In this document: in pieces, positions 24,829 to 58,239 of the stretch
Position numbering within the stretch: the stretch's first letter is position 1
Layout of the letters: the number at the start of each line of letters is the position of its first letter
NCBI GenBank assembly: GCA_963767005.1
Contig: CAVYCN010000002.1
Coordinates: 128,001-192,000 of the forward strand
Direction: 5' to 3'
DNA: 64,000 nt
Origin: an uncultured Actinomycetes bacterium
GTDB taxonomy: Bacteria; Actinomycetota; Thermoleophilia; UBA2241
The notes under the pieces: model-generated
Told to the model about the DNA's origin: nothing
Databases searched by the model: none
Seen by the model: only the letters and a program-made list of their open reading frames with translations
Translations under genes and position numbers: made by a program

Positions 24829-24936
24829 GACTAAACAGATGTCCCATGCATGCACGGGCTCGCGGAGCCGATGAGACGGAGTGAGAAGCACCAACGGGCG
24901 GCAGGCGCGTCTGCCGTCGTTCAGGCGGAGGTAGGA

Positions 24937-27900
24937 ATGGCAACGGTCCACAAGACGGCTCGCCGAGTCGGCGTGCTCGTCGCGCTCGCGACGATCCTCA
25001 CGGCGCTCGCGCTCTGGGCGAGTCCGGCCCAGGCAGCCGGTACCCCCAGCGCCGTGGCCAACCTCGTCTCGACCACGCATCCCAGCCAGTCCACCTGGTA
25101 CCCGCTGACGAACGCGGCCTTCACCTGGAGCGCCGCGACCGAGAGTGGCGGCACGATCGCCGGCTACTCGTTCACCTTCGACCAGAACGCGAGCGGCCTG
25201 CCCCCTGTCCTGTCCGGGGCGGCGCTGTCGTATGGGGCAAGAGTCAACTACACCGTGGGATCGAGCCCGGCCGAGATCCGCGTCGCCGACCTGAACGGCG
25301 ACGGGAAGCTCGACCTCGTGGCCGAGAACTCGGGCGCCAACACCGTGAGCGTGCTGCTCGGCAACGGCGACGGGACGTTCAAGGCGGCGGTCAACTACAC
25401 GACCGACAGCAACCCGTGGTCGCTGCAGGTCGGCGACGTCAATGGCGACGGCAAGCTCGACATCGTCACCTGCAACGAGTCGGCCAGCACGGTCAGCGTG
25501 CTGCTCGGCAACGGCGATGGCACGTTCAAGTCGGCGGTCAACTACACGACCGGCAGCGGTACGTCGCCGGAGTGCATGCGTCTGGGCGATCTGACCGGCG
25601 GCGGCAGTCTCGACATCATCACGGCCAACGCCGGCACCAACAACATCAGCGTGCTGAAGAACAACGGCAACGGCACCTTCGCCGCTCCCGTCATGTACAG
25701 CACCGCGACGCACCCGACCTCGATCGCCATCGGCGACCTGAACGGCGACGGCAAGCAGGACGTGGTGACGGCCAACTACGAGACGAACAACGTGAGCGTG
25801 CTCATAGGCAACGGCGACGGCACCTTCAAGGCGGCCGTCAACGACGCCTGCGGCACGACGCCGCAGACGGTCGAGCTCGCCGACTGCAACGGCGACGGTC
25901 ATCTCGACATCGTCACCGCCAACTACGACGGCACGGCGAGCGTGCTCCTGAACAAGGGCGACGGCACCTTCGCCACGCACGTCGACTACGCGACCGGGGC
26001 CGGCCCCTACTCGCTCTCGCTGGCCGACCTGAACCACGACGGCTACGTCGACATCGTGACCGTGAACCACACGGCCAACACGGTGAGCGTGCTGCTCGGC
26101 AACGGCGACGGCACCTTCCAGGCGCACAGCGACTACAGCACCGGCAACGGCCCCTTCTGGGTCGGCCTCGGTGACTTCAACGGCGACGGCTACGGCGACA
26201 TCGCCGTGACCAACTACACAGACGGCACCGTGAGCGTGCTCCTGGGCAGCGGCTACTACCGGCCGGCCTCGGGCAAGCTCGCCGCCTCGTTCAGTGGCGT
26301 CCACGACGGCACCTGGTACTTCCACGTGCGCGCGATCGACACCGCGGGCGTCGCCGGCCCGCCGAGCAGCTACCAGATCAATGTCGACACGGTCGCGCCC
26401 GTGACCACGGCGGCCGGCCTGCAAGGCTCGGCCTCGACCGGCTGGATCAACACCCAGACCGTGACGCTGACCGCGACCGACACCACGCCGGGCGTGGCCA
26501 CCTCGGGCGTGGCCACCACGTACTACACGCTCGACGGCACTCAGCACACCTACAGTGGCCCGTTCCAGGTGAACACGGCCGGTAGTCACACGATCACGTA
26601 CTGGTCGGTCGACAAGGCGGGCAACACCGAAGGCGCCCACACCGGCTACGTGAACATCGACCTGGCCGCACCGACGACCACGGCCACCACGAACCCCACG
26701 GGCTGGACCAACGGCTCCGTGCAGGTGACCCTCGCGGCGAGCGACACAGGCGGCTCCGGCGTGGACGACGACCTCCTACAAGATCGGCAACGGCGATCCG
26801 CAGACCTACAGCGGCCCGTTCACCGTCTCGAACGCCACGCCGATCGCGTACTGGTCGACCGACAAGGCCGGCAACGTCGAGTCGCAGAAGAGCCTCACAC
26901 CGATGATCGACACCGTCGCGCCGGTCACGACGGCCACGACGAACCCCAGCGGCTGGACCGACGGCGATGTCACCGTGACCCTGTCGGCCACCGACGACGG
27001 CGGCTCGGGCCTCGACACGACCTACTATCAGGTCGGCAGCGGCTCCGTGAAGACCTACGGTGATCCGTTCACGGTCTCGTCCGCGGCGCAGGTCACCTAC
27101 TGGTCGACCGACAACGCCGGCAACGAGGAGACTCATCACACCCTCACGCCGCAGATCGACCTCACGGCGCCGGTCACGACCGCCGCGACCGACCCCAGCG
27201 GCTGGACCAACGGCGATGTCACGGTGACCCTGTCGGCCACCGACGACGGCGGCTCCGGCCTCGACGCGACCTACTACAGGATCGGCGACGCAGATCCGCA
27301 GACCTACTCCGCTCCGTTCATCGTCTCCGACGCGACCCCGGTCACCTACTGGTCGACCGACAAGGCCGGCAACGAGGAACAGCCCGAGACGCTCACGCCG
27401 CAGATCGACCTCACGGCGCCGGTCACCACGGCGACGATGGACCCGTCGGGCTGGACCGACCACGACGTGACGGTGACCCTCGCGGCGAGCGACACAGGCG
27501 GCTCCGGCGTGGACACGACCTCCTACAAGATCGGCAACGGCGATCCGCAGACCTACAGCGGCCCGTTCACCGTCTCGAACGCCACGCCGATCGCGTACTG
27601 GTCGACCGACACGGCCGGCAACGTCGAAGACGCGACGAGCAACATGCTCACGCCGCAGATCGACACGACGGCGCCGGTCGTGACCGACGACGTCGCGACC
27701 GCCTGGCAGCATTCCGCCCAGAAGGTCACCATCAGCGCGTCCGACGAAGGTGGCTCCGGACTTGCCTCGCTGTCGTGCACGGTCGACGGCGTCGACCAGC
27801 AGCTGCCGGCCGCCGGCGGGAGCTTCACAGTCGCCGCTCAGGGCGTCCACACCATCGTCTACTCGGCGACCGACAACGCCGGCAACCAGAGCACGCCGGT

Positions 27901-29830
27901 GACCAGGGAGCTGCGCATCGACACCACGGCGCCGGTCACCACGGCGACGACGGATCCGAGCGGCTGGAGCAAGGGCTCGGTCACGGTCACCCTCGCGGCG
28001 ACCGATACGGGCGGCTCCGGCCTCGACACCACCTACTACAGGATCGGCGACGGCGACCGGCAGACCTACAGCGCTCCGTTCGAGGTCTCCGACGCGACCC
28101 CGGTCACCTACTGGTCGACCGACAAGGCCGGCAACGCAGAGGACGCGACGGGTAACGTGCTCACGCCGCAGATCGACACCACGGCGCCGGTCACGAGCTC
28201 GGCCGACCTCAGTACGAACGACGACTCCGACTGGCAGCCGGTCTCCGAGGTCGACGTGGTGCTGGCCGCGACCGACACGCAGTCGGGCGTGGCGCAGACC
28301 TACTATCGCCTTGGCTCGAGCGGTCCGTTCAGCCCCTACACAGAGGCGCTCCCGATCTCCGGAGACGGCTCCCACGAAATCGATTACTACTCGGTCGACA
28401 ACGTCGGTAACCCCGAGAAGACCGAGGAGGGCTGGGTCAACATCGACGCCACGCCGCCGACGATCGACGTGAGCGGCCTGCAGTCGGCTCCCGACAGCGG
28501 CTGGCAGACGACCGCCCAGCAGGTGACGCTCGAAGCGCGCGATACCGGCTCGGGCGTGGCCGCGGTCACGTATGCGATCGACGGTGTCGCGCAGCCCGCC
28601 TACGCCCAGCCGTTCACGGTGAGCGGTGACGGCTCGCACGTCGTCACCTACTCCGCGGTCGACGAGGCCGGGAACGTGGCGAGCGGCTACGGCTACGTGA
28701 ACATCGACACGATGGCGCCGCAGACGACGGCCTCGCCCAACGTGGTGGCCGCGCCCGACACCGACTTCGTGCTCGACGCCCAGGACGTGACGCTGACCGC
28801 GTCAGACGGCGAGAGCGGTGTGGCCCATACCTACTACACGCTCGACGGTGGGCCCCAGACCGACTACACCGTGCCGTTCACGGTCGCCGGCGTGGGCTCG
28901 CACACGATCACCTACTGGTCGGTCGACGCCCTCGGCAACCGTGAGGACCCGCACACCGGCTACGTGAACATCGCGCCGGCCGAGGCGCTGCTCACGCTCG
29001 CCACGGGCCTGTCCTCGAACGCTCACAGCGGCTGGACGGCGACGCCGGTGACCGTGGAGCTCACGGCCAACGACGCCGCCCAGCAGAGCGGCACCTACTC
29101 CGTCGTCACGCACTACCGGATCGACGGTAGCGGCTGGCAGACCTACAGCGCGCCGTTCGACATCTCGGCGTCGGGCTCGCATCGCGTCGAGTACTACTCG
29201 AGCGACAGCCTTGGCGCGACCGAGCAGACCAACACCGGCTACGTGAACATCGACACGACGCCGCCGGTGACCGTTGCGAGCGGCCCGACTACGCCGCAGC
29301 GCACTGCCACGGTCGTGACGCTGAACCCGAGCGACGCGCAGTCCGGCGTGGCGTCGACCTTCTACGCGCTCGACAAGCAGGCGCCGCAACGCGGCACGAC
29401 CGTTGTCGTGCCGGCGCCGTCGAACCACTCGATGGACGGCGTCCACACCATCAGCTACTACTCGGTCGACGAGGCCGGCAACGTCGAGGCGGCGCATGTG
29501 TTCACGGTCCGCATCGACACGATCCGTCCGGTGTTCACCTACCGTGGCGCGACGAGCTTCACGGCGCGCAGGAACGGCACGCTCAAGCTGAAGCTGCGGG
29601 CGCGCGACGCCGGCGGCACCTGCACGCTGGTCGTGAAGCTCACCCGCAAGGTCGGGAAGAAGGTCACGACCTACCAGCGCACCGTCGTTGCGCGGCACAC
29701 GAGCAACTGGCAGACGGTCAAGCTGGGCCTGCGCGGCCTGCCGCGCGGCAAGTACACGGTCGTGCTCAGGCTGAGCGACCCGGCTGGCAACCTGTCGACG
29801 GCCAAGACGATCCACCTGACCGTCTCATAG
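24937..29830 (+). pseudogene. Giant secreted FG-GAP beta-propeller + about 12 Ig-like repeats + basic C-terminal domain (about 1630 aa if repaired), frameshifted at 26767
   Basis: Signal peptide, seven D(L/V/F/C)NGDG..D blades and DTTAPVTT...YWSTDKAGN repeats continue across ORFs 24850..27063 and 26903..29830. Extra G at 26767 relative to the otherwise identical copy at 27472-27611. Confidence 0.85.
26724..27611 (+). repeat. 140-bp intragenic direct repeat (26724-26864 and 27472-27611)
   Basis: The copies are identical except GTGGACGACGACC versus GTGGACACGACC. Confidence 0.9.
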
Positions 29831-33292: not shown

Positions 33293-34795
33293 ATGAGCGA
33301 AAACGGGGCGACACACGAGCTGGCCCGCGATCAGGTCGGCCTCATGGCGGCGCTCTTCCAGTCGATCACCTCGATGGCCCCCGGGGCCGCCATCGCGGCG
33401 TCGGTCCCGCTCGGCGCGGCCTTCGCCGGCGGTGCGCTGCCGCTGTCGGTCCTGATCGCCTTCGTCGGCATCCTCTTCACGGCGGGCGCCATCGGGCAGC
33501 TCGCCAAGCACATCCCCGCGGCCGGCTCCGTCGCGACCTACAACGCCGTCGGTCTCTGGCCGCCGATCGGCTTCATGGTCGGCTGGGCGTACGCCGCCGT
33601 CGAGGTGCTGATCGTGCCGCTCGTCATGCTCCAGCTCGGCTACACCGTGGCCGGCGAGTGGCACTCCGAGAGCGCCGGCTTTCCGCTCGGCGCCTGGTGG
33701 GTCTTCATGCTGGCCGGCACGATCCTGGTCTGCTGGCTCGTGTACCGTGGCGTCAGGACATCGACCGAGACCGGCGTCTGGCTCGGCTTCGTCGAGATCA
33801 TCGTGTTCCTCACGCTGGCGATCGTCCTGATCGTGAAGGCCGGCGATCACAACACCCTGGCGGTCTTCGGCACGCACTACGCCAACGCCAAGGGCTTCAC
33901 CGGCTTCTCGGGGGTGTTCGCCGGCGCGGTCGGCGCCCTCCTTGCCTTCTCGGGGTTCGAGGCGGCCGCTCCGCTCGCCGAGGAGACCAGGAACCCGCGT
34001 CGCAACGTGCCGCGCGCCGTGATCGGCGCGACCGTCGCGATCGGCGCGCTCTACATCTTCACCACGTATGCGGCCGACGTCGCCTTCGGGCCGAGCAAGT
34101 TCCTCGGCTTCGCCTCGTCGGCCAACGGCGTGCCCTGGGACGGCCTGGCGCGCACCGTGTCGGGCGTGTTCTGGCTGCTCGTCCTGATCGCCATCATCAA
34201 CTCGACGCTCGCCAACGCGAACTCGGGCACCAACGTCTTCACGCGCACGGCGTACGCGTTCGGCCGGGTGGGCGCCTTCCCGCGCGTCTGCGCCGACCTG
34301 CACCCGAAGTTCAAGTCGCCGCGTGTCGGCGTGCTGATCGAGCTCGTCCTGAGCTGCTCGCTGGGCCTGGGCCTGGGGCTCAAGTACTCGCCCCAGGTCG
34401 CCTTCGGCATCATCGGCACCGGCCTCGTCGTCATGGTCGTGCCGGTCTACATGATCACGAACCTCGCCTGCATCGGGTACTTCGCGCGGCACCGCAAGGA
34501 GGAACAGCACCTGCTCTACCACGTGGTCGTGCCGCTGGTCGGCTTCGCCTTCCTGCTGCCCGGTTTCATGAGCGCGGCCGGCATCACCGGCGTCCCCGGC
34601 CTCAAGTTCATCGTGGCCCTCGCCTCGCCGTACAAGTACGCGGCCTACGGCATGGCGGCGTGGGCCGTCGTCGGCGTGATCGTGCTGCTCGTGCTGAACT
34701 CGCGCAACGCCCGCGCCGTGGCCGCCGTGGCCCAGATCCATTTCGAGGACGACGTCACCGTCGCCGCACCGGGAGCGGCCCCAAAGGGCAAGTAG
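33293..34795 (+). CDS. APC family amino acid/polyamine permease
   Basis: QSITSMAPG, IPAAGS, FSGFEAAAPLAEETRNPRRNVPRA, about 12 TM segments. Confidence 0.9.
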   Translation: MSENGATHELARDQVGLMAALFQSITSMAPGAAIAASVPLGAAFAGGALPLSVLIAFVGILFTAGAIGQLAKHIPAAGSVATYNAVGLWPPIGFMVGWAYAAVEVLIVPLVMLQLGYTVAGEWHSESAGFPLGAWWVFMLAGTILVCWLVYRGVRTSTETGVWLGFVEIIVFLTLAIVLIVKAGDHNTLAVFGTHYANAKGFTGFSGVFAGAVGALLAFSGFEAAAPLAEETRNPRRNVPRAVIGATVAIGALYIFTTYAADVAFGPSKFLGFASSANGVPWDGLARTVSGVFWLLVLIAIINSTLANANSGTNVFTRTAYAFGRVGAFPRVCADLHPKFKSPRVGVLIELVLSCSLGLGLGLKYSPQVAFGIIGTGLVVMVVPVYMITNLACIGYFARHRKEEQHLLYHVVVPLVGFAFLLPGFMSAAGITGVPGLKFIVALASPYKYAAYGMAAWAVVGVIVLLVLNSRNARAVAAVAQIHFEDDVTVAAPGAAPKGK

Positions 34796-34829: not shown

Positions 34830-35732
34830 ATGACAACGCTCACCGTGAGCAAGGACCACAGCATCCTGCGGATGTCGCGCCACGCGGCGCCGGTGGCGCG
34901 CATCGCCTCGGGTGACAGCATCCGGCTCGAGACGGCCGACTGCTTTTCGGACCAGGTCACCGGGCCGGCCGACGTCAGGGGCCTCGACTGGGACACGGTC
35001 AACCCGGCCACCGGCCCGATCCTGATCGAGGACGCCGGGCCCGGCGACGTGCTCGCCGTGCGCATCGAGCGCCTCGAGACGAGCGGCCACGGCATCATGT
35101 GCACCGGCGGCGGCTGGGGCGTGCTCGGCGACCGCATCGACGAGCTGACCTGGCGCTTCCTCGACGTCGGCAGCGCCGGCGCGAGCTGGGAAGGCGGCCC
35201 GGCCGTGCCGCTCAAGCCCATGATCGGCGTCATCGGCGTGGCGCCGGCCGGCGCCGACGTGCCGTGTGGCACGCCGGGTCCGCACGGCGGCAACATGGAC
35301 ACCCGCCTGATCGGCGAGGGCGCCACGCTGTACCTGCCCGTGCAGGTGCCCGGCGCGCTGCTCGCCGCCGGCGACCTGCACGCCGCCATGGGCGACGGCG
35401 AGGTCGCCGTGACCGGCGTCGAGGTGGCCGGAGCCGTCACGCTGCGGGTGACGCTGCGCCGCGACCTGCGGCTGAGCGACCCGGTGGTCGAAAACGACGA
35501 GCTCGTCGCCGCCATCGCGTCGGCCGCGACGCTCGACGAGGCGGCCGCCCTGGCGACCCGTGCCATGGCCGACCTGCTCCACGAGCGCCTCGGCCTCGAC
35601 ATGGCCGAGGCCGTGATGCTCATGAGCGCGGGCGGCCACGTGCGCGTTTCGCAGATGGTCGACCCGCTGCGTACCGTGCGGTTCGAGATGCCCAAGGCGC
35701 TCTACGAGTCGTCCCACGGGGCGCTGCTGTAG
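34830..35732 (+). CDS. Acetamidase/formamidase family protein
   Basis: NPATGPI, PMIGVIGVAP, PGPHGGNMD, GDLHAAMGDGEV. SD GAGGAGG. Confidence 0.9.
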   Translation: MTTLTVSKDHSILRMSRHAAPVARIASGDSIRLETADCFSDQVTGPADVRGLDWDTVNPATGPILIEDAGPGDVLAVRIERLETSGHGIMCTGGGWGVLGDRIDELTWRFLDVGSAGASWEGGPAVPLKPMIGVIGVAPAGADVPCGTPGPHGGNMDTRLIGEGATLYLPVQVPGALLAAGDLHAAMGDGEVAVTGVEVAGAVTLRVTLRRDLRLSDPVVENDELVAAIASAATLDEAAALATRAMADLLHERLGLDMAEAVMLMSAGGHVRVSQMVDPLRTVRFEMPKALYESSHGALL

Positions 35733-36057: not shown

Positions 36058-37269
36058 ATGAAGGAACGGAATCTTCTCGAGGATCTGGTCGCGGTCAGTC
36101 CCGGCATGGAGATCTGGTGGGATTCTTCGCCGGTCATCTTCGGCAACTGGTGCAAGAAGATGCTCGCGAAGGCCGAGCCCGGCGACCAGGGCACGCTCAA
36201 GGCCCAGTTCGCCCGCATGTACGACACCGGCGACCCGCAGCATCAGCTCTTCCGCGGCGTCACCACCAACCCGCCCCTTTCGCTCGCGGCCTTCAAGGAC
36301 GACCCGCCCTACTGGCGGGCCGTGGCCGCCGACATCCTCAAGCAGCACAGCGACCTCGACGTCGAGGGCCTCTTCTGGGTGCTCTACAAAGAGGTCGTCA
36401 AGCGCGGTTCCGACATGTTCCTGCCGCTCTTCGAGGCCTCGGGCCACAAAGAGGGCTTCCTCTCCGGCCAGTGCGACCCGCGCAGCGCCTTCGACAAGGA
36501 CGCCATGCTCAAGCAGGCCGCCGAGATCCACGCGGTCAACCCGAACGTCATGGTCAAGGTGCCCGGCACCGCCGAGGGCTACGAAGTGATCGAGGAGCTC
36601 ACGGCACAGGGCATCGCCACCAACAACACGCTCACCTTCGTGCTGCCCCAGCTCATGGACTGCGCCAAGTCGGTCATGCGCGGCCTCGAGAGGGCCCGCG
36701 CCAACGGCGTCGACCTCTCGAACTGGCGCTCGGTCATCACGCACATGGAGGCCCGCTACGGCGACCTCGGCGGCCTGCGCGAGTTCGGCGCCGAGAAGGG
36801 CATCGAGGTCACCGAGGGCGAGGTCCGCCTGGCCGAGCTTGCCATCTTCAAGAAGGCCTACCGGATCCTGAGCGAGCGCGCCTACCAGAGCAAGATGCTG
36901 TCCTGCTCCCTGCGCGTGGGCCCGACGGTCGATGGCAAGCTGCGTCTCTGGCACCTCGAAGAGAAGGCCGGCGCGGCCGTCGTCGTCACCTGCCCGCCGA
37001 GCTTCATCGACGAGTGCATCAACTTCCCGGATGCCGAGAACATCAGGTTCGAGCCGCACCGCATCGACGTCGATCCGCCGAAGGCGGTCATGGACAAGCT
37101 CATGCGCATCCCGTACTTCGAGCGCGCTTACGAAGAGGACGGCTACACGAGGGCCGAGTACAACACTCATCCCGCTCTCATGAAGACTGCCGACGCGTTC
37201 TCAAAGGCGACGCAGGAGATGGTCGACTTCGCCGCGAGCTGCCTCGAGGGCAGCCGCGTCAGCGCCTGA
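36058..37269 (+). CDS. Divergent transaldolase-fold (class I Schiff-base aldolase) protein
   Basis: WWDS, GVTTNPP, VMVKVPGT and NNTLTF retained. SGQCDP and THMEAR replace the canonical SIEVSP and SFFVSR. Confidence 0.85.
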   Translation: MKERNLLEDLVAVSPGMEIWWDSSPVIFGNWCKKMLAKAEPGDQGTLKAQFARMYDTGDPQHQLFRGVTTNPPLSLAAFKDDPPYWRAVAADILKQHSDLDVEGLFWVLYKEVVKRGSDMFLPLFEASGHKEGFLSGQCDPRSAFDKDAMLKQAAEIHAVNPNVMVKVPGTAEGYEVIEELTAQGIATNNTLTFVLPQLMDCAKSVMRGLERARANGVDLSNWRSVITHMEARYGDLGGLREFGAEKGIEVTEGEVRLAELAIFKKAYRILSERAYQSKMLSCSLRVGPTVDGKLRLWHLEEKAGAAVVVTCPPSFIDECINFPDAENIRFEPHRIDVDPPKAVMDKLMRIPYFERAYEEDGYTRAEYNTHPALMKTADAFSKATQEMVDFAASCLEGSRVSA

Positions 37270-37298
37270 CTTCTAGGCCCGACGAAAGGACGATGAGA

Positions 37299-38399
37299 AT
37301 GGCGAACGAGACCAAGCAGGTTCAGGACCTGTTCGTGCCCTGGCTCCTCACGGCGCCCGAGTACAACACGAGCATCCTCGACAAGGCCTGGGCGCAGCCT
37401 GAGATGGGCCGCATGATGCTGAACGAGAACCCGGTGCCGCCGTCCGAGAAGGTCGTCGAGGCGATCACCGAGATCGCCAAGAAGGGTAACCGCTACCCCG
37501 ACCGCATGTACCGGCTGCGCAGCAAGCTGGGCGCCCTGCACGGGGTCGCGGCCGAGAACATCGCCGTCGCCAACGGCTCGTCCGAGACGATCGACGCGAT
37601 GATGCGCATCTTCCTGAAGCCGGGCGACGAGTTCCTCTGCTCGATCCCGACCTTCGAGATGTTCCCCTCGCGGGCCGGCCTGTGCGGCGCCAGCACGGTC
37701 CAGGTGCCGCTCCGTGAGCCCGACCTGCAGTACGACGTGCCGGGCATGCTCGACGCCGTGAACGACAGGACCAAGCTCATCCTCATCATCAACCCGAACA
37801 ACCCGACGGGCATCTTCATCGACGACGCCGACCTCATCAAGTTCTGTGAGCTCGGCATCCCGCTCTGCATCGACGAGGCCTACCTCGACTACCACCCGCA
37901 GGTCGGCGCCAAGATCGATCTCGTCAAGAAGTATCCGCACGTGTTCCTGTCGCACACGTTCTCGAAGGCCTTCGGCCTGGCCGGCGTGCGCTTCGGCTAC
38001 GTCGTCGGCTCGCCCGACGTCATCGAGGCCTTCAACCTCATGTACCTGCCGTGGAACGTGAGCCTGCTGGCCCAGGCCGCCGCCGAGGTCATCCTCGACA
38101 CCGGCGAGGTCAAGGCGAAGGTCGTCTACAACAACGAGTGGATGGCCACCTTCGTCAAGGAGCTCGAAGCGGTCGGCTGCAAGCCGTTCGCGCCGCACGG
38201 CAACTACATGCTGATCGACGCCTCGGCGAGCGGCAAGACGAGCGCCGAGATCGTCCAGGCCGGCGCCGACATGGAAAAGCTCTTCCTCAAGACCATCAAG
38301 CCGATCAACGGCAAGGAAGGCTACTTCCGCATCACGCCCGGTACGCCCGAGGAGTGCGAGCGCTTCGTGCGCTTCGTGCGCAACTACTTCGGCAAGTAG
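37299..38399 (+). CDS. HisC-like fold-type I PLP enzyme (aminotransferase), divergent
   Basis: LNENP, NRYPD, NGSSE, NPNNPTG, IDEAY, HTFSKAFGLAGVRFG, RITPG. SD AAAGGA. Confidence 0.85.
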   Translation: MANETKQVQDLFVPWLLTAPEYNTSILDKAWAQPEMGRMMLNENPVPPSEKVVEAITEIAKKGNRYPDRMYRLRSKLGALHGVAAENIAVANGSSETIDAMMRIFLKPGDEFLCSIPTFEMFPSRAGLCGASTVQVPLREPDLQYDVPGMLDAVNDRTKLILIINPNNPTGIFIDDADLIKFCELGIPLCIDEAYLDYHPQVGAKIDLVKKYPHVFLSHTFSKAFGLAGVRFGYVVGSPDVIEAFNLMYLPWNVSLLAQAAAEVILDTGEVKAKVVYNNEWMATFVKELEAVGCKPFAPHGNYMLIDASASGKTSAEIVQAGADMEKLFLKTIKPINGKEGYFRITPGTPEECERFVRFVRNYFGK

Positions 38400-38440: not shown

Positions 38441-38475
38441 CATGCCCTCCCCCCGTGGAGCGGGGGGAGGGCATG
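38441..38475. terminator. Strong hairpin between the PLP enzyme and tkt (a second hairpin lies at 38401-38430)
   Basis: CATGCCCTCCCCCCG-TGGAG-CGGGGGGAGGGCATG. Confidence 0.55.
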
Positions 38476-38516: not shown

Positions 38517-40556
38517 ATGAGCCCTGAGGCGAGCGCTTTGACCCTCGAAGAGCGGTGCGTCGACACCGTCCGGTTCCTCGCCGTCGACGGCGTGGAGAAG
38601 GCCAAGTCGGGCCATCCCGGCATGCCCATGGGGGCCGCGCCCGTGGCGCACACGCTCTTCACCCGCCACCTGCGCTTCGACCCGGCCGACCCGGCCTGGC
38701 CCGATCGCGACCGCTTCGTGCTGTCGGCCGGTCACGCCAGCATGCTGCTCTACGCGATGCTGCACCTGACCGGCTACGACCTGACGCTCGACGACCTGCG
38801 CGCCTTCAGGCAGTGGGGCAGCAAGACGCCGGGGCATCCCGAGTACGGCCACACGCCCGGCGTCGAGACCACGACCGGCCCTCTGGGCCAGGGTCTCGCC
38901 AACGCCGTCGGCATGGCCATGGCCGAGCGCTTTCTGGCCGCCACCTTCAACGGCGACGGCCCCGCCGTGGTCGATCACTTCACCTACGTGCTGGCCGGCG
39001 ACGGCTGCATGATGGAGGGGATCACGAGCGAGGCCGCCTCGCTCGGCGGTCACCAGAAGCTCGGCAAGCTGGTCGTCCTCTACGACGACAACCACGTGAC
39101 GATCGACGGCTCGACCGACCTCGCCTTCACCGAGGACGTCTGCGCCCGCTACGCCGCCTACGGCTGGCACGTGCAGAAGGTCGCCGACGGCACCGACCTG
39201 GACGCCGTCGACGCGGCCATCGCGGCGGCCAAGGCCGAGACCGACCGGCCCTCCATCATCGCCGTGCGCACCCACATCGGGTTCGGCTCGCCGCACAAGC
39301 AGGACAAGGCCGCTGCGCACGGCGCGCCGCTCGGCGCCGACGAGGTCAAGCTGACCAAGGAGGCCCGCGGCTGGCCGCTCGAGCCCACGTTCTTCGTGGC
39401 CGACGACGTCAGGGAGTTCTACGGTCAGGCCGCGCGACGCGGCGCGGCCGCGCATGCGGCGTGGCGCGAGCGTCACGCCGCCTGGAGCGCGGCCGACCCG
39501 ACCCGCGCCGCCGCCTGGTCGGCCGCCTGGAGCCGTGAGCTGCCGACCGGCTGGGACGCCGACCTGCCGGCCTACGCCGCCGGCGATGACCCGATCGCCA
39601 CGCGCTCGGTGTCGGGTAAGGTCATCAACGCCCTCGCGCCGCATCTGCCGACCCTGATCGGCGGCTCGGCCGACCTCGCGCCGTCCAACAACACGCTCAT
39701 CAAGGACGTGGCCGACCTGCAGGCCGCCACGCCGGCGGGGCGCAACCTGCACTTCGGCGTGCGCGAGCTCGCCATGGCGGCCATCGGCAACGGCCTGGCG
39801 GCCCACGGCGGCATCCGGCCCTACGTGGCGACGTTCTTCGTGTTCGTCGACTACATGCGGCCGGCCATGCGCCTGTCGGCGCTCATGGGCCTGCCCGTCA
39901 CGTACATCCTCACGCACGACAGCGTGGGCGTGGGCGAGGACGGCCCGACGCACCAGCCGATCGAGCACCTCGCCATGCTGCGCGCCACGCCGAACTTCAT
40001 CGACCTGCGTCCGGCCGACGCGGCCGAGACGGTCGAGGCCTGGCGGATCGCGATCGAAGAGGGATCGGCGCCGGTCGGCCTCATGCTGACGCGTCAGAAC
40101 CTGCCGGTGATCGACCGCGCGGTCTACGGTGCGGCCGGCGGCGTGCGGCGCGGCGCCTACGTGCTCGCCGACTCAGGCGTCGGCGCACCCGACGTCATCC
40201 TGCTGGCGAGCGGCAGCGAGGTGCATCTGGCCCTCGCCGCCTACGAGCGCCTGATCGCCGAGGGCGTGCGTGCCCGCGTCGTGAACCTGGCGTCGTTCCG
40301 CCTGTTCGAGCGTCAGGATGCCGCCTATCGCGAGTCCGTGCTGCCGGCGGCCTGCCGTTGCCGCCTGGCCGTCGAGGCCGCCGCGAGCTTCGGCTGGGAC
40401 CGCTGGGTGGGCGACGGCGGCGAGATCATCGCCATCGATCGCTTCGGCGCCTCGGCGCCGGCCGGCACCATCTTCGCCGAGCTCGGCTTCAGCGTCGACA
40501 ACGTCTATGAGCGCGCCAAGGCGCTCGTCGGCGCCGCGACCGCGCCGGTCGTCTAG
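38517..40556 (+). CDS. tkt: Transketolase
   Basis: [57 protein letters not shown]. Confidence 0.97.
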
Positions 40557-41231: not shown

Positions 41232-41930
41232 CTACCAGCCGACCCGCCCGCCGTCGCGCGCGACCTTGTCGCGGCAGACGTGGCCGATGGCGTCGAGCAC
41301 TGTGCGCGCCACGAGGTGGCTGACCGGGGTCGCCGGGCCGGCGTAGGGCAGAGGGGTGCCGCGCCCGGTGCAGGCGACGACGACGGCGTCGGTCGACGTG
41401 CCGGTCGCCCGGTCGCCGTCCGGCGTGCGCACGTCCCACTCCGCGAGCACGGCCGTCTTCGCCTCGGTCGCCGTGATGACGGCGTTGACCATCGCCGCGT
41501 CGGTGAGGCGGCCGTCGACCAGCACGATCGCGTTGATGGTGCCGGGCGCGAGCGGCGCCGGAGGCGTGAGCCCCGCGCGCGCCGTGTTGCTGAGGCCGAC
41601 CGACACCACGCTCGCCACGGTGAGGTCGGCGGCGCGGGCGACGCTGAGGCGGGCTTGCTGCGTCGCCGCGGCCGTCATGAGGCCGACGAAGCCGTCGCCG
41701 ACGCCGAGACCCGCGGCAAAGGCAGCGAGCTCGGCCTGGGGCGACGAGTCGGGAGCGACATCGTCGACGTGCATGTTGACGACGTCGCACGTGCGGGCGA
41801 AGCCGCCGCATGCCAGGGCGGAGCTCAGCACGTACAGGGGCCGGTCGCTGCGTACGAGCACGGCGCGCTCGTCGACGGTCACGACGACGCCGGGGATGGT
41901 GGTGTCGAGCTGGTCGAGCGGGCGACTCAC
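41232..41930 (-). CDS. cbiZ: Adenosylcobinamide amidohydrolase
   Basis: LSSA..GG, GLMTAA, GLSN, PGTIN, NAVITATEAK, ATGTSTDAV. GTG start inferred at 41930. Confidence 0.85.
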   Translation of the reverse strand: MSRPLDQLDTTIPGVVVTVDERAVLVRSDRPLYVLSSALACGGFARTCDVVNMHVDDVAPDSSPQAELAAFAAGLGVGDGFVGLMTAAATQQARLSVARAADLTVASVVSVGLSNTARAGLTPPAPLAPGTINAIVLVDGRLTDAAMVNAVITATEAKTAVLAEWDVRTPDGDRATGTSTDAVVVACTGRGTPLPYAGPATPVSHLVARTVLDAIGHVCRDKVARDGGRVGW

Positions 41931-42061
41931 TGGTCGGCGACCTCGGTCGTATCGGCGACGGCAGGGGCGCGCGCCATCGTACCTCACGGGGCGGGCCGCC
42001 GTCGCCCGGCGGCCGCACCGCGGTTGACGGCGGCGCGCGGCCTGCACTAGCCTCCGCGTCC

Positions 42062-43012
42062 GTGATCCCGACGCCCGCCATCGCCGCGCTGACCGTGCTC
42101 CTCGCCGGCCTGCTCGACGTCGCCTGCGGCGAGCCGCCGAACGCGCGGCATCCCGTCGCCTGGCTGGGCCGGCTCGTCGCCCTGCTCGAACGACGCGCCC
42201 CGCGCGGACGGCCGCGCGCGGAGCTGGCCTACGGCGTGCTCGTGGTGGTGGTCGCCACGGCCGCGGCCGCAGCGGTCGGCCTGGGCCTCGCCTACGGGCT
42301 GGCGCGCCTGCCCTGGTGGCTCGCGCTGCCGGCCGGCGCCGTCGCGCTGAAGGTGAGCTTCTCGCTGCGCGGCCTCGTCGGCGCCGGCCGCGTCGTGCAG
42401 CGCGCCCTTGGGACCGACGACGACGCCGCACGCGCGGGCCTGCTCGCCCTCGTGAGCCGGTCGCGCGATCTCACGCCGCCGCAGGTCGCCTCGGCGGCGA
42501 TCGAGTCGCTCGCCGAGAACCTCTCGGACAGCGTCGTCGCGCCGCTGCTGTTCTACGTCGTGTTGGGGCTCCCCGGCGCCCTGGCCTACCGCGCCGTGAA
42601 CACGCTCGACGCGATGATCGGCTACCACGGCCGCTACGAGTATCTGGGCAAGGTGGCCGCGCGGCTCGACGACGTCGCCAACCTGGTACCGGCGCGGCTG
42701 ACGGGGCTCCTGATCGTGGCCTTCGCCGGCCTGCGCGGCAGAGGGCGGGCGGCGCTCGCCGCGCTGCGTGACGAGCGCCGCCTGTCGTCGAGTCCCAACA
42801 AGCTCTGGACGATCGCTCCCATGGCGGCCGCCCTGGGCGTGCGCCTGGAGAAGCCGGGTACGTACGCCGTCGGACCCGGCGACCGGCCGCCCACGGCGGA
42901 GACCATCGGCGCCGCGGCCGTGCTCGTGTGGGCGGGCGGCGCGGTGGCGCTGGCCGCCGCGGCGGCCGGCGCGGCGCTCGTCGTGGCCCTACTCGGCGGC
43001 GGGTTGTTCTAG
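42062..43012 (+). CDS. cbiB: Adenosylcobinamide-phosphate synthase
   Basis: GEPPNARHPVAWLG, LVSR, IESLAENLSDSVVAPLLF, YRAVNTLDAMIGY, ARLDDVANLVPARL, SPN. Confidence 0.93.
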   Translation: MIPTPAIAALTVLLAGLLDVACGEPPNARHPVAWLGRLVALLERRAPRGRPRAELAYGVLVVVVATAAAAAVGLGLAYGLARLPWWLALPAGAVALKVSFSLRGLVGAGRVVQRALGTDDDAARAGLLALVSRSRDLTPPQVASAAIESLAENLSDSVVAPLLFYVVLGLPGALAYRAVNTLDAMIGYHGRYEYLGKVAARLDDVANLVPARLTGLLIVAFAGLRGRGRAALAALRDERRLSSSPNKLWTIAPMAAALGVRLEKPGTYAVGPGDRPPTAETIGAAAVLVWAGGAVALAAAAAGAALVVALLGGGLF

Positions 43013-54077: not shown

Positions 54078-54346
54078 GGTCCGCGCCGCGCGCCGCTCAC
54101 CCGCCTGAGGCTCCGCCGCACTCGCCCGAGCGCCGCTCGCGCCACCCTCTCCGTCGCACGACGCGACCGAGCCCCAACCTGAGCAGAACGGCCGCGACGG
54201 CCTCGGTAGTCGCTGCGCCGAATCGGGGATAGTAGGCACGATGAGCGGCGGCCGGCCGGCGGCCGAAGGGCAGCGCGGCCGGCGCGGCTCATCGTGAAGG
54301 GGGTGGCCGCACGATCGGCCCATCCTTCGACGGCGAGGGAGTGCAT

Positions 54347-55510
54347 ATGGCATACGACGACAGCAAGCTTGCCGCGCTGGCGGACTTCGGCCAGAGCGTC
54401 TGGCTCGACTTCATCAGCCGCGACATCCTGCGTTCGGGCCGTCTCGACGAGCTCGTCGCGCGGGGCGTGACCGGGATGACCACCAATCCCACGATCTTCC
54501 AGAAGGCGATCGCTCAGGGCGACGCCTACGACGAGGAGATCGCCGAGCTCGCCGAGCAGGGTCGTTCGGCCGCCGAGATCGCCGACGCGCTGATCGTCTC
54601 CGACGTGCGCGCGGCCTGCGACCTGCTGCGCCCGGTCTACGACGGCAGCGCTCACCGCGACGGTTACGTGTCGATCGAAGTGTCGCCCGAGGTCGCCTAC
54701 GACACGCGGGCGACGCTGCGTGAGGCGCGACGCCTGCACGACGCGGTCGGGCGTCCCAATGTCATGGTCAAGATCCCCGGCACGCCGCCCGGGATCGCCG
54801 CCGTCCGCCAGGCCGTCGCGGCCGGCCTGCACATCAACATCACCCTGCTCTTCGCGATCGCCGCCTACGAGCGCGTGATCGACGCCTTCCAGGGCGGACT
54901 CGAGGAGCGCGTCGCCCGGGGCGAGCCGATCGACGACGTGCACTCGGTGGCGAGCTTCTTCGTGTCGCGCATCGACGCGAAGGCCGACCGCGAGATCGAC
55001 GACCGTCTGAGCGGCGAGGTCGACGCCGTGGTGCGCGAGCGGCTCGAGGGCCTGCGCGCCAGCCTCGCTCTGGCCAACGCCCGTCTCGCCTACGGGCGCT
55101 TCAACGAGTCGCTGTCGTCGGACCGCTGGCACCGTCTGGCCGAACGCGGGGCGCACCCGCAACGGCTGCTGTGGGCCAGCACGAGCACCAAGGATCCGCG
55201 ATACGATGATCTGCTGTACGTCGACAACCTGATCGGGCGACGCACCGTCGACACCGTGCCCGAGGAGACGCTCAACGCCTTCCTCGACCACGGCGTGGTC
55301 CGCCGGACGCTCGGCCGCGACGCCGACGACGAGGCCCGCGCCCGGGTGGAGCGGGCGGCGGCCCTCGGGGTCGACCTGCGCACGATCACCGGCGAGCTGC
55401 AGGCCGAGGGCGTGCGTCTGTTCAGCGACTCGTTCGAGGGGCTGCGCGACACCGTCGAACGCAAACGTGCCGAGCTCCTGGCCGGCGAGGAGAGGAGGCT
55501 GAGTGCCTAG
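54347..55510 (+). CDS. tal: Transaldolase
   Basis: SVWLD, GMTTNPTIF, VSIEVSP, VMVKIP, NITLLF, SVASFFVSR, QRLLWASTSTK. Confidence 0.95.
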   Translation: MAYDDSKLAALADFGQSVWLDFISRDILRSGRLDELVARGVTGMTTNPTIFQKAIAQGDAYDEEIAELAEQGRSAAEIADALIVSDVRAACDLLRPVYDGSAHRDGYVSIEVSPEVAYDTRATLREARRLHDAVGRPNVMVKIPGTPPGIAAVRQAVAAGLHINITLLFAIAAYERVIDAFQGGLEERVARGEPIDDVHSVASFFVSRIDAKADREIDDRLSGEVDAVVRERLEGLRASLALANARLAYGRFNESLSSDRWHRLAERGAHPQRLLWASTSTKDPRYDDLLYVDNLIGRRTVDTVPEETLNAFLDHGVVRRTLGRDADDEARARVERAAALGVDLRTITGELQAEGVRLFSDSFEGLRDTVERKRAELLAGEERRLSA

Positions 55511-57182
55511 CGACCCGGTGCTCGAAGCGATCGATCGGCGACTGCAGAGCTTCGACGACGAGCGCTTCGGCGAGCGGCTGTTCGAGCACGACGCGACACT
55601 CTGGAAAGACGACCCGCGACACGGCGCGATCATCGCGCAGGCCCTCGGCTGGCTGACGATCGCCGACGACATGAGGACACGGAGCGGCGACCTGCTCGGC
55701 TTCGCCGCGCAGGTCGCCGCCGAAGGCTACCGCGACGCGGTGCTGCTCGGCATGGGCGGCTCGAGCCTTGCGCCCGAGGTGCTGCGCCGCACCTTCGGGG
55801 TGGCCGACGGCTATCTCGACCTGCGCATCTGCGACTCGACCGACCCGGCCGCCGTGCGCGCCGTCGAGGAGGCGGTCGACCTCGAGCATACGCTGTTCAT
55901 CGTCTCGAGCAAGTCGAGCGGCACCACCGAGACGGCCTCGTTCCACGCCTACTTCCACGAGCGCCTGTGCGGGCTCGTCGGCGACGAGGCGGCCGGCCGC
56001 CACTTCGTGGCGATCACCGATCCCGACACCGCGCTGCACGAGGAGGCGCTGGCCCAGGGCTTTCGCGCCGTCTTTCTGAACCCGCCCGACATCGGCGGGC
56101 GCTACTCGGCCCTGTCGTATTTCGGTCTCGTGCCGGCCGCCCTCATCGGCCTCGACATCGACCGCCTGCTCGAGCGCGCCGCGTCGGTCGCGGCGCAGTG
56201 CCGCGACGGCGGCCCGGCGCGCGAGCACCCGGCCTTCAAGGTCGGCGTCGCGCTGGGCGAGCTCGCCCTCGCCGGCCGCGACAAGGTGACGTTCTTCCTG
56301 TCGCCCGCGATCGCCGCGCTCGGCGCCTGGCTCGAGCAGCTCCTGGCCGAGAGCACGGGCAAGGAGGGTACCGGTCTCGTGCCGATCGACGGCGAGCCGC
56401 CCGGCCCGCCCGAGGCCTACGGTGAGGACAGGGTGTTCGTGTACCTCGCCCTCGAGGGCGAGTCCGACGAGCGCCGTGGCGAGGCGCTGCAGGCGCTCGC
56501 CGCCGCCGGGCAGCCGACCATGACGCTGACGCTCAGCGACCTCTGGGACGTGGGCGCCGAATTCGTGCGCTGGGAGATGGCCGTGGCGGCCGCCGGCGCG
56601 GTGCTCGGCATCGACCCCTTCGACCAGCCCAACGTTCAGGAGAGCAAGGACAACACCAGACGGCTGCTCGCCGTCTACGAGGCCGAGGGCAGCCTGCCGG
56701 CGCCGCCCACGGCGGCCGGCCGGCCGCTCACCGTGGCGGTCGGCGACCCCGGCCTCCGCGACGCGCTGCGCGGGCTGCTCGGCGTGGTGCGGCCCGGCGA
56801 CTACGTGGCGCTGCAGGCCTACGTGCCGCCGGGCGAGCGCCACCAGCGCATCCTGCAGGGCGTCAGGCTTCTGCTGCGCGACCGCTTCCACGTGGCCACG
56901 ACGCTGGGCTACGGGCCCCGCTTCCTGCACTCGACCGGCCAGCTCCACAAGGGCGGCCGGCCCGACGGCGTGTTCCTGCAGCTCACCTGCGGCGAGCGCG
57001 GCGATCTGCCGATCCCGGGGCAGCCCTACACGTTCGGGCTCCTCGTGCAGGCGCAGGCGCGCGGCGATCTCGAGGCGCTCGCCTCGCGCGGACTGCGCGT
57101 GCTGTCGGTCGACCTCGGCTCCGAGCCGCTGGCCGGCCTCACGACCCTGGGCGGCGCCGTGGCGGAGCTGCTGCGGGGCTGA
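55503..57182 (+). CDS. pgi: Glucose-6-phosphate isomerase (Tal-Pgi C-terminal type)
   Basis: GMGGSSL, SSKS.GTTET, IGGRYSALS, EQLLAESTGK, PFDQPNVQESK, GPRFLHSTGQLHKGG. Own SD GGAGG. Confidence 0.9.
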   Translation: MPSDPVLEAIDRRLQSFDDERFGERLFEHDATLWKDDPRHGAIIAQALGWLTIADDMRTRSGDLLGFAAQVAAEGYRDAVLLGMGGSSLAPEVLRRTFGVADGYLDLRICDSTDPAAVRAVEEAVDLEHTLFIVSSKSSGTTETASFHAYFHERLCGLVGDEAAGRHFVAITDPDTALHEEALAQGFRAVFLNPPDIGGRYSALSYFGLVPAALIGLDIDRLLERAASVAAQCRDGGPAREHPAFKVGVALGELALAGRDKVTFFLSPAIAALGAWLEQLLAESTGKEGTGLVPIDGEPPGPPEAYGEDRVFVYLALEGESDERRGEALQALAAAGQPTMTLTLSDLWDVGAEFVRWEMAVAAAGAVLGIDPFDQPNVQESKDNTRRLLAVYEAEGSLPAPPTAAGRPLTVAVGDPGLRDALRGLLGVVRPGDYVALQAYVPPGERHQRILQGVRLLLRDRFHVATTLGYGPRFLHSTGQLHKGGRPDGVFLQLTCGERGDLPIPGQPYTFGLLVQAQARGDLEALASRGLRVLSVDLGSEPLAGLTTLGGAVAELLRG

Positions 57183-57266
57183 CCGAGCACGGCGACGAGG
57201 CGGCGGCCGGCTTTGAGCCGGCCGCCGCCCGCGCCTCGACACCCGACGAGACAAAGGAGACGGCAC

Positions 57267-58166
57267 ATGGAACTGGCGATGGTCGGCCTCGGTCGCATGG
57301 GCGGCAACATGGCGCGGCGCTTGCTGCGCGGCGGGCACCGCGTCGTCGTCTGGAACCGCACGTTCGCCAAGGCGCAGGAGCTCGAGAGCGCGGGCGCCGA
57401 GGCGGTCGAGCGGCTTGAGGACGTGCCCGGCAAGCTCACGGCGCCGCGCGCGATCTGGGTGATGCTGCCGTACGGAGCTCCTACAGACGAGGCCATCGAC
57501 GCGCTCGTGCCGCACCTCGACCGCAACGACGTCGTGATCGACGGCGGCAACTCGCCCTATCAGCACGACATCGAGCGCGGCGCCCGGCTCGAGACGCAGG
57601 GCCTCCGCTACCTCGACGCCGGTACGAGCGGCGGCGTGTGGGGGCTCGAGGTCGGCTACTGCCTGATGGTGGGCGGCGACCGCAGCGCCTTCGAGCAGAT
57701 CGAGCCGGCGCTCGCCACGCTGGCGCCGCCCGGCCACGGCTACGAGTACTGTGGCGGCCACGGCGCCGGTCACTTCGTGAAGATGGTCCACAACGGCATC
57801 GAGTACGGCATGATGCAGGCCTACGGCGAGGGCTTCGAGCTGCTCGCGGCGAGCGGCTACGACCTCGACCTCTCGTCGATCGCCGACCTCTGGAACCAGG
57901 GCAGCGTGGTGCGCTCGTGGCTGCTCGAGCTGGCCGTCGACGCCTTCCGCAAGGACCCCGGCCTCGAGCAGATCAGCGGCTACGTCGAGGACACCGGCGA
58001 GGGCCGCTGGACGGTGCAGCAGGCGATCGAGCGCGGCGTGCCCATGCCGGTGATCGCCCTGTCGCTGTTCATGCGCTTCCGCTCGCGGCAGGACGACTCG
58101 TTCTCGGGCAAGGTGCTGGCCGCGCTGCGCAACGAGTTCGGCGGTCACGCCGTGAAGGCCAGATGA
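57267..58166 (+). CDS. gnd: 6-phosphogluconate dehydrogenase, short (YqeC-type) form
   Basis: [39 protein letters not shown]. Confidence 0.93.
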
Positions 58167-58239
58167 ACGGCGCCGGACTGCGCCCGCCGCGTGGCGGGCG
58201 GCCGGGCGGTCAAGCGCGGCCGGCGAGGGACGGACGGCC

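Follow-up and report, generated by a model that had tools for sequence, protein, structure and literature searches.

We describe a three-gene module encoded in a 64,000-nucleotide stretch (the window) of the genome of an uncultured actinomycete of the class Thermoleophilia (contig CAVYCN010000002.1 of assembly GCA_963767005.1, positions 128,001 to 192,000). It comprises genes for a 403-residue protein of transaldolase fold, here named TALx, for its partner, a pyridoxal phosphate (PLP)-dependent aminotransferase resembling HisC (the PLP gene and PLP enzyme), and for a transketolase (tkt). The module is real, is conserved among uncultured bacteria from soils and sediments, and is no artefact of annotation. 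Judged by its residues, TALx fits neither transaldolase nor fructose-6-phosphate aldolase (FSA), and its partner is not a working hisC product. We propose, in a judgement where confidence and doubt are evenly balanced, that the module assimilates the carbon skeleton of phosphoethanolamine through glycolaldehyde phosphate and xylulose 5-phosphate, the substrates being read from neighbouring genes. The module consists of:

36058..37269, plus strand: TALx, transaldolase-fold protein of the Gln/Met clade, 403 aa (PF00923, E=3e-29; pLDDT 97.6); key residues D22, T69, N71, Q138, K167 (Schiff-base lysine), N189, T191, T228, H229, M230, E231, R233, S284 and R286
37299..38399, plus strand: HisC-like (subfamily I-beta) PLP aminotransferase with remodelled substrate pocket, 366 aa (TIGR01141, 248.5 bits)
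38517..40556, plus strand: transketolase, which in Thermoleophilia is the module's third gene (TIGR00232, 885 bits, over cut-off)

Conservation of the module

Comparisons covered the source genome (100% complete), 80 related TALx loci from metagenome-assembled genomes of Thermoleophilia/Actinomycetota and Desulfobacterota/Deltaproteobacteria (68-92% identity; many of them short contigs), a family sample of 50 genomes, each at least 85% complete, and a wider-clade sample of 61 metagenome loci out of 80 returned, L162-L180 (26-35% identical to the query) having been left out. Kin are not independent, so tallies over these related genomes are to be read as counts and not as tests.

The PLP gene, whose ATG at 37299 lies 29 bp past the TALx stop as first annotated (an alternative ATG is at 37293), is present within the locus in 76 of the 80; of the remaining four, one is cut off by a contig end within an alanine dehydrogenase gene. 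The pairing, for which the first-pass annotation of the window had suggested a co-occurrence check, extends to whole genomes: of the 50 in the family sample, 33 have both TALx and the PLP gene and 17 have neither. Among 151 genomes sampled across the class, 12 yielded TALx, and every one of these belongs to the family of the source genome. Transketolase follows the module in 48 of 52 actinobacterial loci (48/80 overall), and a different transketolase precedes it in seven loci of Desulfobacterales type. In the window the longest transketolase open reading frame (ORF) begins at 38442, and a ribosome-binding site precedes the ATG at 38517.

TALx subclades at 39-55% identity sit again with a PLP gene, alanine dehydrogenase, importer, kinases, GcvT with electron-transfer flavoprotein (ETF), and transketolase (L104, L105, L107, L108, L136, L138, L143, L148 and L158); in a quick tree these loci fall in at least three separate branches. 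An apparent TALx-PLP fusion in L051 was rejected, its junction being out of frame and likely a sequencing frameshift. Some genomes carry a second copy from the TALx clade (L224 3693-4901 in genome G003; G108:C88; G150:C27), and in that of G003 Tyr and Leu replace His229 and Glu231.

Active site of TALx

TALx shares the fold of transaldolase (EC 2.2.1.2; TalB and the enzymes of C. glutamicum, 3R5E, and N. gonorrhoeae, 3CLM): the best structural matches to its AlphaFold model are long-type transaldolases, at TM-scores of 0.68-0.70 and 20-22% identity, and it is 27% identical to the canonical transaldolase of the window. The features of the PF00923 superfamily (barrel fold, Schiff-base lysine, aspartate and TTNP) are all present, and the sequence contains the motifs WWD22SS, TTNP, SGQ138CDP, MVK167VP, NNT191L and T228H229M230E231AR233. 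Alignment with E. coli TalB and FsaA (reference sequences from MG1655) bore out the earlier reading that the Asp, TTNP, Schiff-base Lys and NxTL are retained: D22, T69, N71, K167, N189, T191, R233, S284 and R286 are kept, equivalent to TalB D17, T33, N35, K132, N154, T156, R181, S226 and R228.

The same alignment places Gln138 at the acid/base Glu96 of TalB and at Gln59 of FsaA, as had been read from the motif, and Met230 at Phe178 of TalB and Tyr131 of FsaA. The THMEAR motif, at first read as placing His-Met at the Phe site, is present, but the Phe site is Met230 alone; His229 stands one position earlier, at TalB Pro177, and Glu231 at Val179, while Thr228 is a conservative replacement of TalB Ser176 and corresponds to Ala129 of FsaA. 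These references were used in place of PDB entry 7OEY, whose 'E93Q' was considered as the acid/base Glu and proved to be a different site; E96Q variants exist according to PDB titles. The pattern is not due to chance, for 149 of 149 close homologues share the same residue at eight sites (Q138, T228, H229, M230, E231, R233, S284 and R286). Across a wider alignment of 82 sequences, down to 25% identity, the Gln and Met sites remain invariant and the H229 and E231 sites vary.

With Gln138 at the position of the acid/base Glu and Met230 at the Phe/Tyr switch, TALx belongs by its residues to neither described type. It lies under every curated NCBIfam cut-off for transaldolase or FSA (best 106.7 versus 367 bits; 36.4 versus 245.95 on the FSA model TIGR00875), clusters of the protein atlas carry the label 'transaldolase family' only, and a quick tree, in which five short FSA-like rows aligned poorly, puts TALx in a clade separate from canonical transaldolases, the phylogeny that had been called for. 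FsaA shares with TALx the family, the Schiff-base Lys and the Gln, but differs in having Tyr131 for Met230, Leu107 for Asn189, Ala129 for Thr228, and about 220 aa against 403. The C1-hydroxyl and phosphate sites of canonical transaldolase are retained (N189, T228, R233, S284, R286). Lacking the Tyr and having a C1 site of TalB type (N189, T228), TALx resembles a transferase more closely than it does an FSA-type aldolase. The undescribed module linked to the pentose phosphate pathway, as originally proposed, is supported as a conserved pair of transaminase and transaldolase-fold enzyme. His229 and Glu231, or the phosphate of the substrate, may take the place of Glu96 as acid/base.

The PLP enzyme and the hisC question

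The PLP enzyme falls under the TIGR01141 cut-off of 276.55 bits, a weak separator given that one distant module-linked member passes at 289.6. It retains the PLP-binding residues and anion site of subfamily I-beta, which includes HisC and the aromatic aminotransferases (N167, D192, Y195, the PLP lysine K223, R231 and R344), whereas the second anion-binding Arg of HisC, Arg322, is Lys331. Following the residue roles given in PMC4703992, the imidazole pocket of M. tuberculosis HisC (Asn103, Tyr127, Met129, Tyr261) is replaced by S95, F119, M121 and W252, so that Asn/Asp, Tyr and Tyr of HisC have become Ser, Phe and Trp; F119 is, by the same account, the residue of aromatic aminotransferases. The altered motifs noted at first, NGSSE, FEMF and HTFSK, are all present, but the His of the last varies (83 H and 34 V among 120 homologues), and the invariant changes are NGSSE, F119, W252 and K331. 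W252 and K331 occur in 120 of 120 close homologues, and the Trp recurs in distant module-linked members (9/9 loci with the column). The larger residue at 252 suggests a smaller amino-alcohol phosphate as substrate, and the pocket changes are as expected for one without the side chain bound by HisC. HisC acts on an amino-alcohol O-phosphate, and the same type of substrate is predicted here.

That this enzyme is not a working hisC product is argued by three observations: an over-cut-off hisC lies elsewhere in 30 of 34 carrier genomes, hisB, hisA and hisF were not found in the complete source genome, and the imidazole pocket is changed. The search for a separate canonical hisC, proposed at the outset, succeeded in most carriers, although the source genome itself has none over cut-off; the possibility that the PLP enzyme is the sole hisC was set aside. 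Among eight such hisC regions six could be aligned at position 252, none with the module's Trp, and four adjoin cmk/aro genes. As first noted, the module lies apart from his genes, none being found among the scanned ORFs of the window.

The source genome holds a decayed histidine pathway, of which a hisZ-like gene, a divergent hisG and hisD remain (C6:168-171 kb, C11:70.7-71.9 kb and C2:284.5-289 kb; loci L090 and L091 for the first two). A solitary second homologue of hisD is on C11, and the aro operon is without the hisC that relatives carry there. A CobD or cobalamin role for the PLP enzyme was also considered and rejected (TIGR01140, 148.3 versus 290.55 bits; a CbiZ/CbiB-like neighbourhood 1-3 kb downstream in 5/80 loci).

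Neighbouring genes and a predicted pathway

The first-pass annotation had favoured an amino-sugar or amino-polyol substrate; neighbouring genes across lineages point instead to a two-carbon aminoethyl phosphate derived from choline or ethanolamine. Among the 80 loci, choline/ethanolamine kinase occurs in 14 and an N-demethylase in 27 (MtbB-like in 15, MttB in 3, MtmB-like in 2, and a GcvT-type dehydrogenase with ETF in 10). A PhnS2-like binding protein is found in 10 (TIGR03261, 334 bits, its best match, under cut-off), accompanied by PhnT2/PhnU2-like partners that are likewise best matches under cut-off. Alanine dehydrogenase occurs in nine, always directly after TALx: in eight it lies between TALx and the PLP gene, and the ninth is at a contig end. 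Regulators of the DeoR and GntR families accompany 34 and 23 loci. On one strand of L060 the order is APH kinase, MttB, corrinoid protein, MtmB, choline kinase, TALx, PLP gene and tkt, and L005 repeats it with a permease inserted before TALx.

Within the family, 30 of the 33 genomes with TALx also have the kinase, as do 4 of the 17 without TALx. Of the Desulfobacterota, 10 of the 16 that carry the PLP gene have a PF01633 kinase, and none of the three that lack the PLP gene does. EutB was found in none of 35 genomes (the E. coli control was positive), and CutC was not found in the one genome searched.

In the source genome the genes that stand upstream in L060 have counterparts (62-90% identity), grouped as an island spanning G000:C2:292-321 kb. 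Besides an APH kinase-MttB-corrinoid-MtmB series, this island (292538-321223; L098, L099) contains two choline/ethanolamine kinases and an MtbB-like gene (296252-297658) that is interrupted by a TAG codon in frame, with tRNA-Pyl on C3. Glycerate kinase, 2-hydroxyacid dehydrogenase, a 949-aa GcvT-SHMT fusion ORF, a transketolase/PDH-E1-like ORF, and metallophosphoesterase-like and unannotated conserved genes are also found there.

In the proposed pathway, choline or N-methylethanolamines would be phosphorylated by the choline/ethanolamine kinases and demethylated to phosphoethanolamine, by MttB/MtbB/MtmB-like corrinoid methyltransferases in Thermoleophilia or by the GcvT-type dehydrogenase with ETF in Syntrophales. 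Phosphorylation of choline ahead of MttB-type demethylation has a precedent in MthK/MthB of Eubacterium limosum, as described in PMC12155760. The PLP enzyme would then carry out HisC chemistry on phosphoethanolamine, a substrate without side chain, to yield glycolaldehyde phosphate and alanine, with pyruvate as the probable amino acceptor and alanine dehydrogenase recycling the alanine. TALx would move a dihydroxyacetone unit from a ketose phosphate (fructose 6-phosphate or sedoheptulose 7-phosphate) onto glycolaldehyde phosphate. According to PMC3962226 transaldolases yield 3S,4R products, a rule that, applied to this acceptor, predicts D-xylulose 5-phosphate. Transketolase would take this product into the non-oxidative pentose phosphate pathway, which regenerates the donor. 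We favour TALx over transketolase as the enzyme that receives the aldehyde because TALx is the constant partner of the PLP gene. By our arithmetic three glycolaldehyde phosphate would give two glyceraldehyde 3-phosphate and inorganic phosphate, redox-neutrally and with no B12-dependent lyase.

Several observations weigh against this proposal. Any of kinase, demethylase, importer or alanine dehydrogenase is present at only 38 of the 80 loci; in the window no kinase or demethylase adjoins the module, those of the island being about 125 kb away; and the kinase is missing from three TALx-positive family genomes and present in four TALx-negative ones. What the importer matches best is a transporter of aminoethylphosphonate. 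Without the acid/base Glu, ordinary transaldolase chemistry would be expected to be severely impaired, and H229 and E231 are absent from distant module-linked members. No transaldolase accepting glycolaldehyde phosphate was found in the literature, on which the available parts of PMC9961378 and PMC8208507 are silent, the search having covered few subscription papers. In 15 of 19 Desulfobacterota genomes no PF00923 match other than TALx was found, and in L056, L063 and L065 TALx occurs without a PLP gene, which suggests that it can do ordinary transaldolase work; in Desulfobacterota its role may additionally, or chiefly, be that of a housekeeping transaldolase. Such work would be compatible with transfer chemistry but weakens the case for a dedicated role.

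Alternative explanations

The alternative that survives best, itself unlikely, keeps the substrate and changes the chemistry. The PLP enzyme would be a phospho-lyase that converts phosphoethanolamine to acetaldehyde, ammonia and inorganic phosphate, or glycolaldehyde phosphate would be dephosphorylated or condensed with dihydroxyacetone phosphate (to xylulose 1,5-bisphosphate, followed by a HAD phosphatase), with TALx acting in the manner of FSA. Gln138 is indeed the FsaA residue, a HAD gene lies near the module in eight loci, distant members (L095, L136, L145) have class II aldolase and HAD genes on their flanks, and protein P0134 is a HAD-transaldolase fusion. Yet TALx has no Tyr at the position of the FSA catalytic residue, and its N189 and T228 are of TalB type; known phospho-lyases are, to our knowledge, class III aminotransferases and not HisC-like; and alanine dehydrogenase beside the PLP gene implies transamination. 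Asp22 would imply a hydroxylated donor and not acetaldehyde (PMC6099348 names D6 among donor-pocket residues).

Quite unlikely, too, is a substrate of larger size, an amino-sugar phosphate or the phosphate of an amino alcohol (serinol phosphate, aminopropanediol phosphate or a 2-amino-polyol 1-phosphate), which the PLP enzyme would convert to a ketose phosphate for cleavage or transfer by TALx. HisC chemistry does turn R-CH(NH2)-CH2-OP into R-CO-CH2-OP, the kinases are assigned at family level only, the DeoR and GntR regulators are typical of sugar-phosphate operons, and other Gln/Met subclades lie in polyol or sugar operons (L095, L097, L137). The conserved Trp252 in place of the pocket Tyr argues for something smaller, however, and N-demethylases with a PhnS2-like importer fit choline-type head groups, while no sugar transporter or sugar kinase is among the annotated recurring neighbours.

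If the substrate were 2-aminoethylphosphonate and its N-methyl forms, with phosphonoacetaldehyde as acceptor for TALx, the best matches of the Syntrophales importer to PhnS2/PhnT2/PhnU2, the scores of the GntR regulator on PhnF/PhnR models and a phosphonate-binding ABC system at one distant locus (L101) would be accounted for. All importer and GntR scores lie under cut-off, however; a phosphonate would have no need of the kinases that co-occur; no enzyme that cleaves the C-P bond is among the annotated recurring neighbours; and the product would be a non-metabolisable phosphonate sugar. We regard this reading as improbable.

Distinctly improbable is the end of a glycine-betaine route, from betaine by demethylation to glycine, then to serine and by its transamination to hydroxypyruvate, as a transketolase donor or as a precursor of glycerate. 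It draws on a 2-hydroxyacid dehydrogenase and glycerate kinase directly upstream of TALx in L003 and L004, genes found also in the methylamine island of the source genome together with the GcvT-SHMT fusion, and on the resemblance of GcvT/ETF to dimethylglycine dehydrogenase. That context is confined to 2 of the 80 loci, serine transaminases are usually of class V, and the choline kinases, the PhnS2-like importer and TALx would be left unexplained.

The least probable reading makes the association a housekeeping coincidence, with TALx doing ordinary fructose 6-phosphate/erythrose 4-phosphate transaldolase work by a different catalytic device, and with the PLP enzyme being either HisC or an aromatic aminotransferase: the absence of another PF00923 match from 15 of 19 Desulfobacterota genomes, the lack of an over-cut-off hisC in the source genome, F119 (an aromatic-aminotransferase residue according to PMC4703992) and the distant PLP member that passes the hisC cut-off would suit it, but it has to contend with the separate hisC of most carriers, in none of the six aligned cases with Trp at 252, with the missing hisB, hisA and hisF, with further transaldolase-family genes in 15 of 15 Thermoleophilia carriers, and with a perfect match of TALx and PLP gene presence and absence that, together with shared regulators, argues for one pathway.

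Relation to known routes

Returning to the proposed phosphoethanolamine pathway, its parts belong to known enzyme families and its logic resembles that of MthK/MthB and PhnW; what would be new is the predicted pathway itself and the natural Gln/Met active site. No description was found of the module, of the function of the TALx clade or of a phosphoethanolamine transaminase, in a search that most subscription papers lay outside. EutBC ammonia-lyase and the routes through amino-alcohol kinase and phospho-lyase yield acetaldehyde and lose the phosphate, and PhnW transaminates aminoethylphosphonate to a two-carbon aldehyde with pyruvate as acceptor. The predicted route shares with these the same or an isosteric substrate and a kinase-first logic, and differs in keeping oxygen and phosphate and in entering metabolism at xylulose 5-phosphate.

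MthK/MthB/MthC/MthA of E. limosum combine a kinase, an MttB-family methyltransferase and a corrinoid protein on a phosphorylated amino alcohol, and genes of these types, matched at family level only, also precede the module in L060 and L005 and occur at another place in the source genome. In E. limosum the system removes one methyl and expels the product, whereas module genomes have further demethylases and carbon-assimilating genes; the main text of PMC12155760 contains no transaldolase or aminotransferase.

A broader reading, which we offer tentatively and hold to be somewhat more doubtful than credible, is that the module gives anaerobes complete use of choline without a B12-dependent lyase: all three methyls would be stripped from the phosphorylated head group, in part by a pyrrolysine methyltransferase, and the remainder would enter the pentose phosphate pathway through glycolaldehyde phosphate. 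The widespread Gln/Met clade would then be a third catalytic type of the family, dedicated to that compound. This would hold for rhizobial operons too, in which glycolaldehyde phosphate might be set free from a tetrulose phosphate by a thiamine-dependent dehydrogenase. Soils and sediments are rich in choline and ethanolamine head groups; of the anaerobic routes known, that of CutC gives trimethylamine, that of EutBC gives acetaldehyde, and Mth ends after a single demethylation. If the reading is true, anaerobes use the whole choline or ethanolamine molecule and release no trimethylamine, glycolaldehyde phosphate, a metabolite known mostly from prebiotic chemistry, gains a natural role, and thousands of 'transaldolase' and 'histidinol-phosphate aminotransferase' labels need renaming. 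TALx in any case poses a mechanistic question, that of catalysis in a transaldolase fold with neither the transaldolase Glu nor the FSA Tyr.

Other members of the Gln/Met clade

In other branches the gene belongs to operons of acetoin-dehydrogenase-like type that also hold genes for triose-phosphate isomerase, RpiB, phosphoglycolate phosphatase, class II aldolase and HAD proteins (on Shinella plasmids; L102, L137, L149), and further branches adjoin inositol genes and other sugar-acid genes. The Gln/Met transaldolase stands inside E1alpha-E1beta-E2-E3 operons in L095 (9957-18499), L096, L102, L137 and L149, accompanied by gph, a TIM-barrel gene, tpi and sometimes rpiB; Shinella is a cultured host that carries such an operon. 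Our guess is that in these operons a tetrulose phosphate is cleaved to glycolaldehyde phosphate.

Domains of this clade or of related transaldolases are fused to a HAD hydrolase, to a xylose-isomerase-like TIM barrel and to an M24 peptidase (P0134, P0238, P0235). A long-branch Gln/Met transaldolase (L152 983-2230; L159 5866-7200) occurs in a conserved cluster resembling a biosynthetic cluster, with HAD, SDR, sulfotransferase-looking and MFS-looking genes named from the look of their N-termini. The source genome has a third, short, FsaA-like gene of the transaldolase family (G000:C13:20949-21500; 35% to FsaA), and similar short genes in relatives (L219-L222, L227) show an unusual motif at the Tyr site.

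Other features of the window

Three further features of the window bear on the module as neighbours or for comparison:

34830..35732, plus strand: acetamidase/formamidase-family gene (PF03069), upstream neighbour, not core; in 4/80 loci
33293..34795, plus strand: APC amino-acid/amine permease, upstream neighbour, not core; close homologue in 3/80 loci
54341..55510, plus strand: canonical transaldolase (E113, F207), outside the module and used for comparison only (NF002881, 463.6 bits versus cut-off 367)

The canonical transaldolase had been placed at 54347, which is the next ATG after the start of its ORF at 54341. It opens a tal-pgi-gnd-zwf operon (54341-59853) whose tal and pgi are separate overlapping ORFs, each matching one half of NF007080, a model of bifunctional Tal/Pgi. 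The impression that TALx and the PLP enzyme are richer in lysine than their neighbours held on counting (6.0% and 6.3%, versus 0.2-2.6% in 13 other window proteins); the third-position G+C content of the two genes is ordinary (0.93 and 0.97). Between 35600 and 40800 there was no match to a sigma-70 promoter, and terminators were not in excess. Downstream of tkt, at 41232-43012, lie CbiZ (PF01955, minus strand) and a divergent CbiB-like ORF (plus strand) whose homologue in L001 matches PF03186. Two large repeat proteins, with FG-GAP and with Ig-like/chitobiase repeats, are encoded at 24850-29830 and are probably surface proteins.

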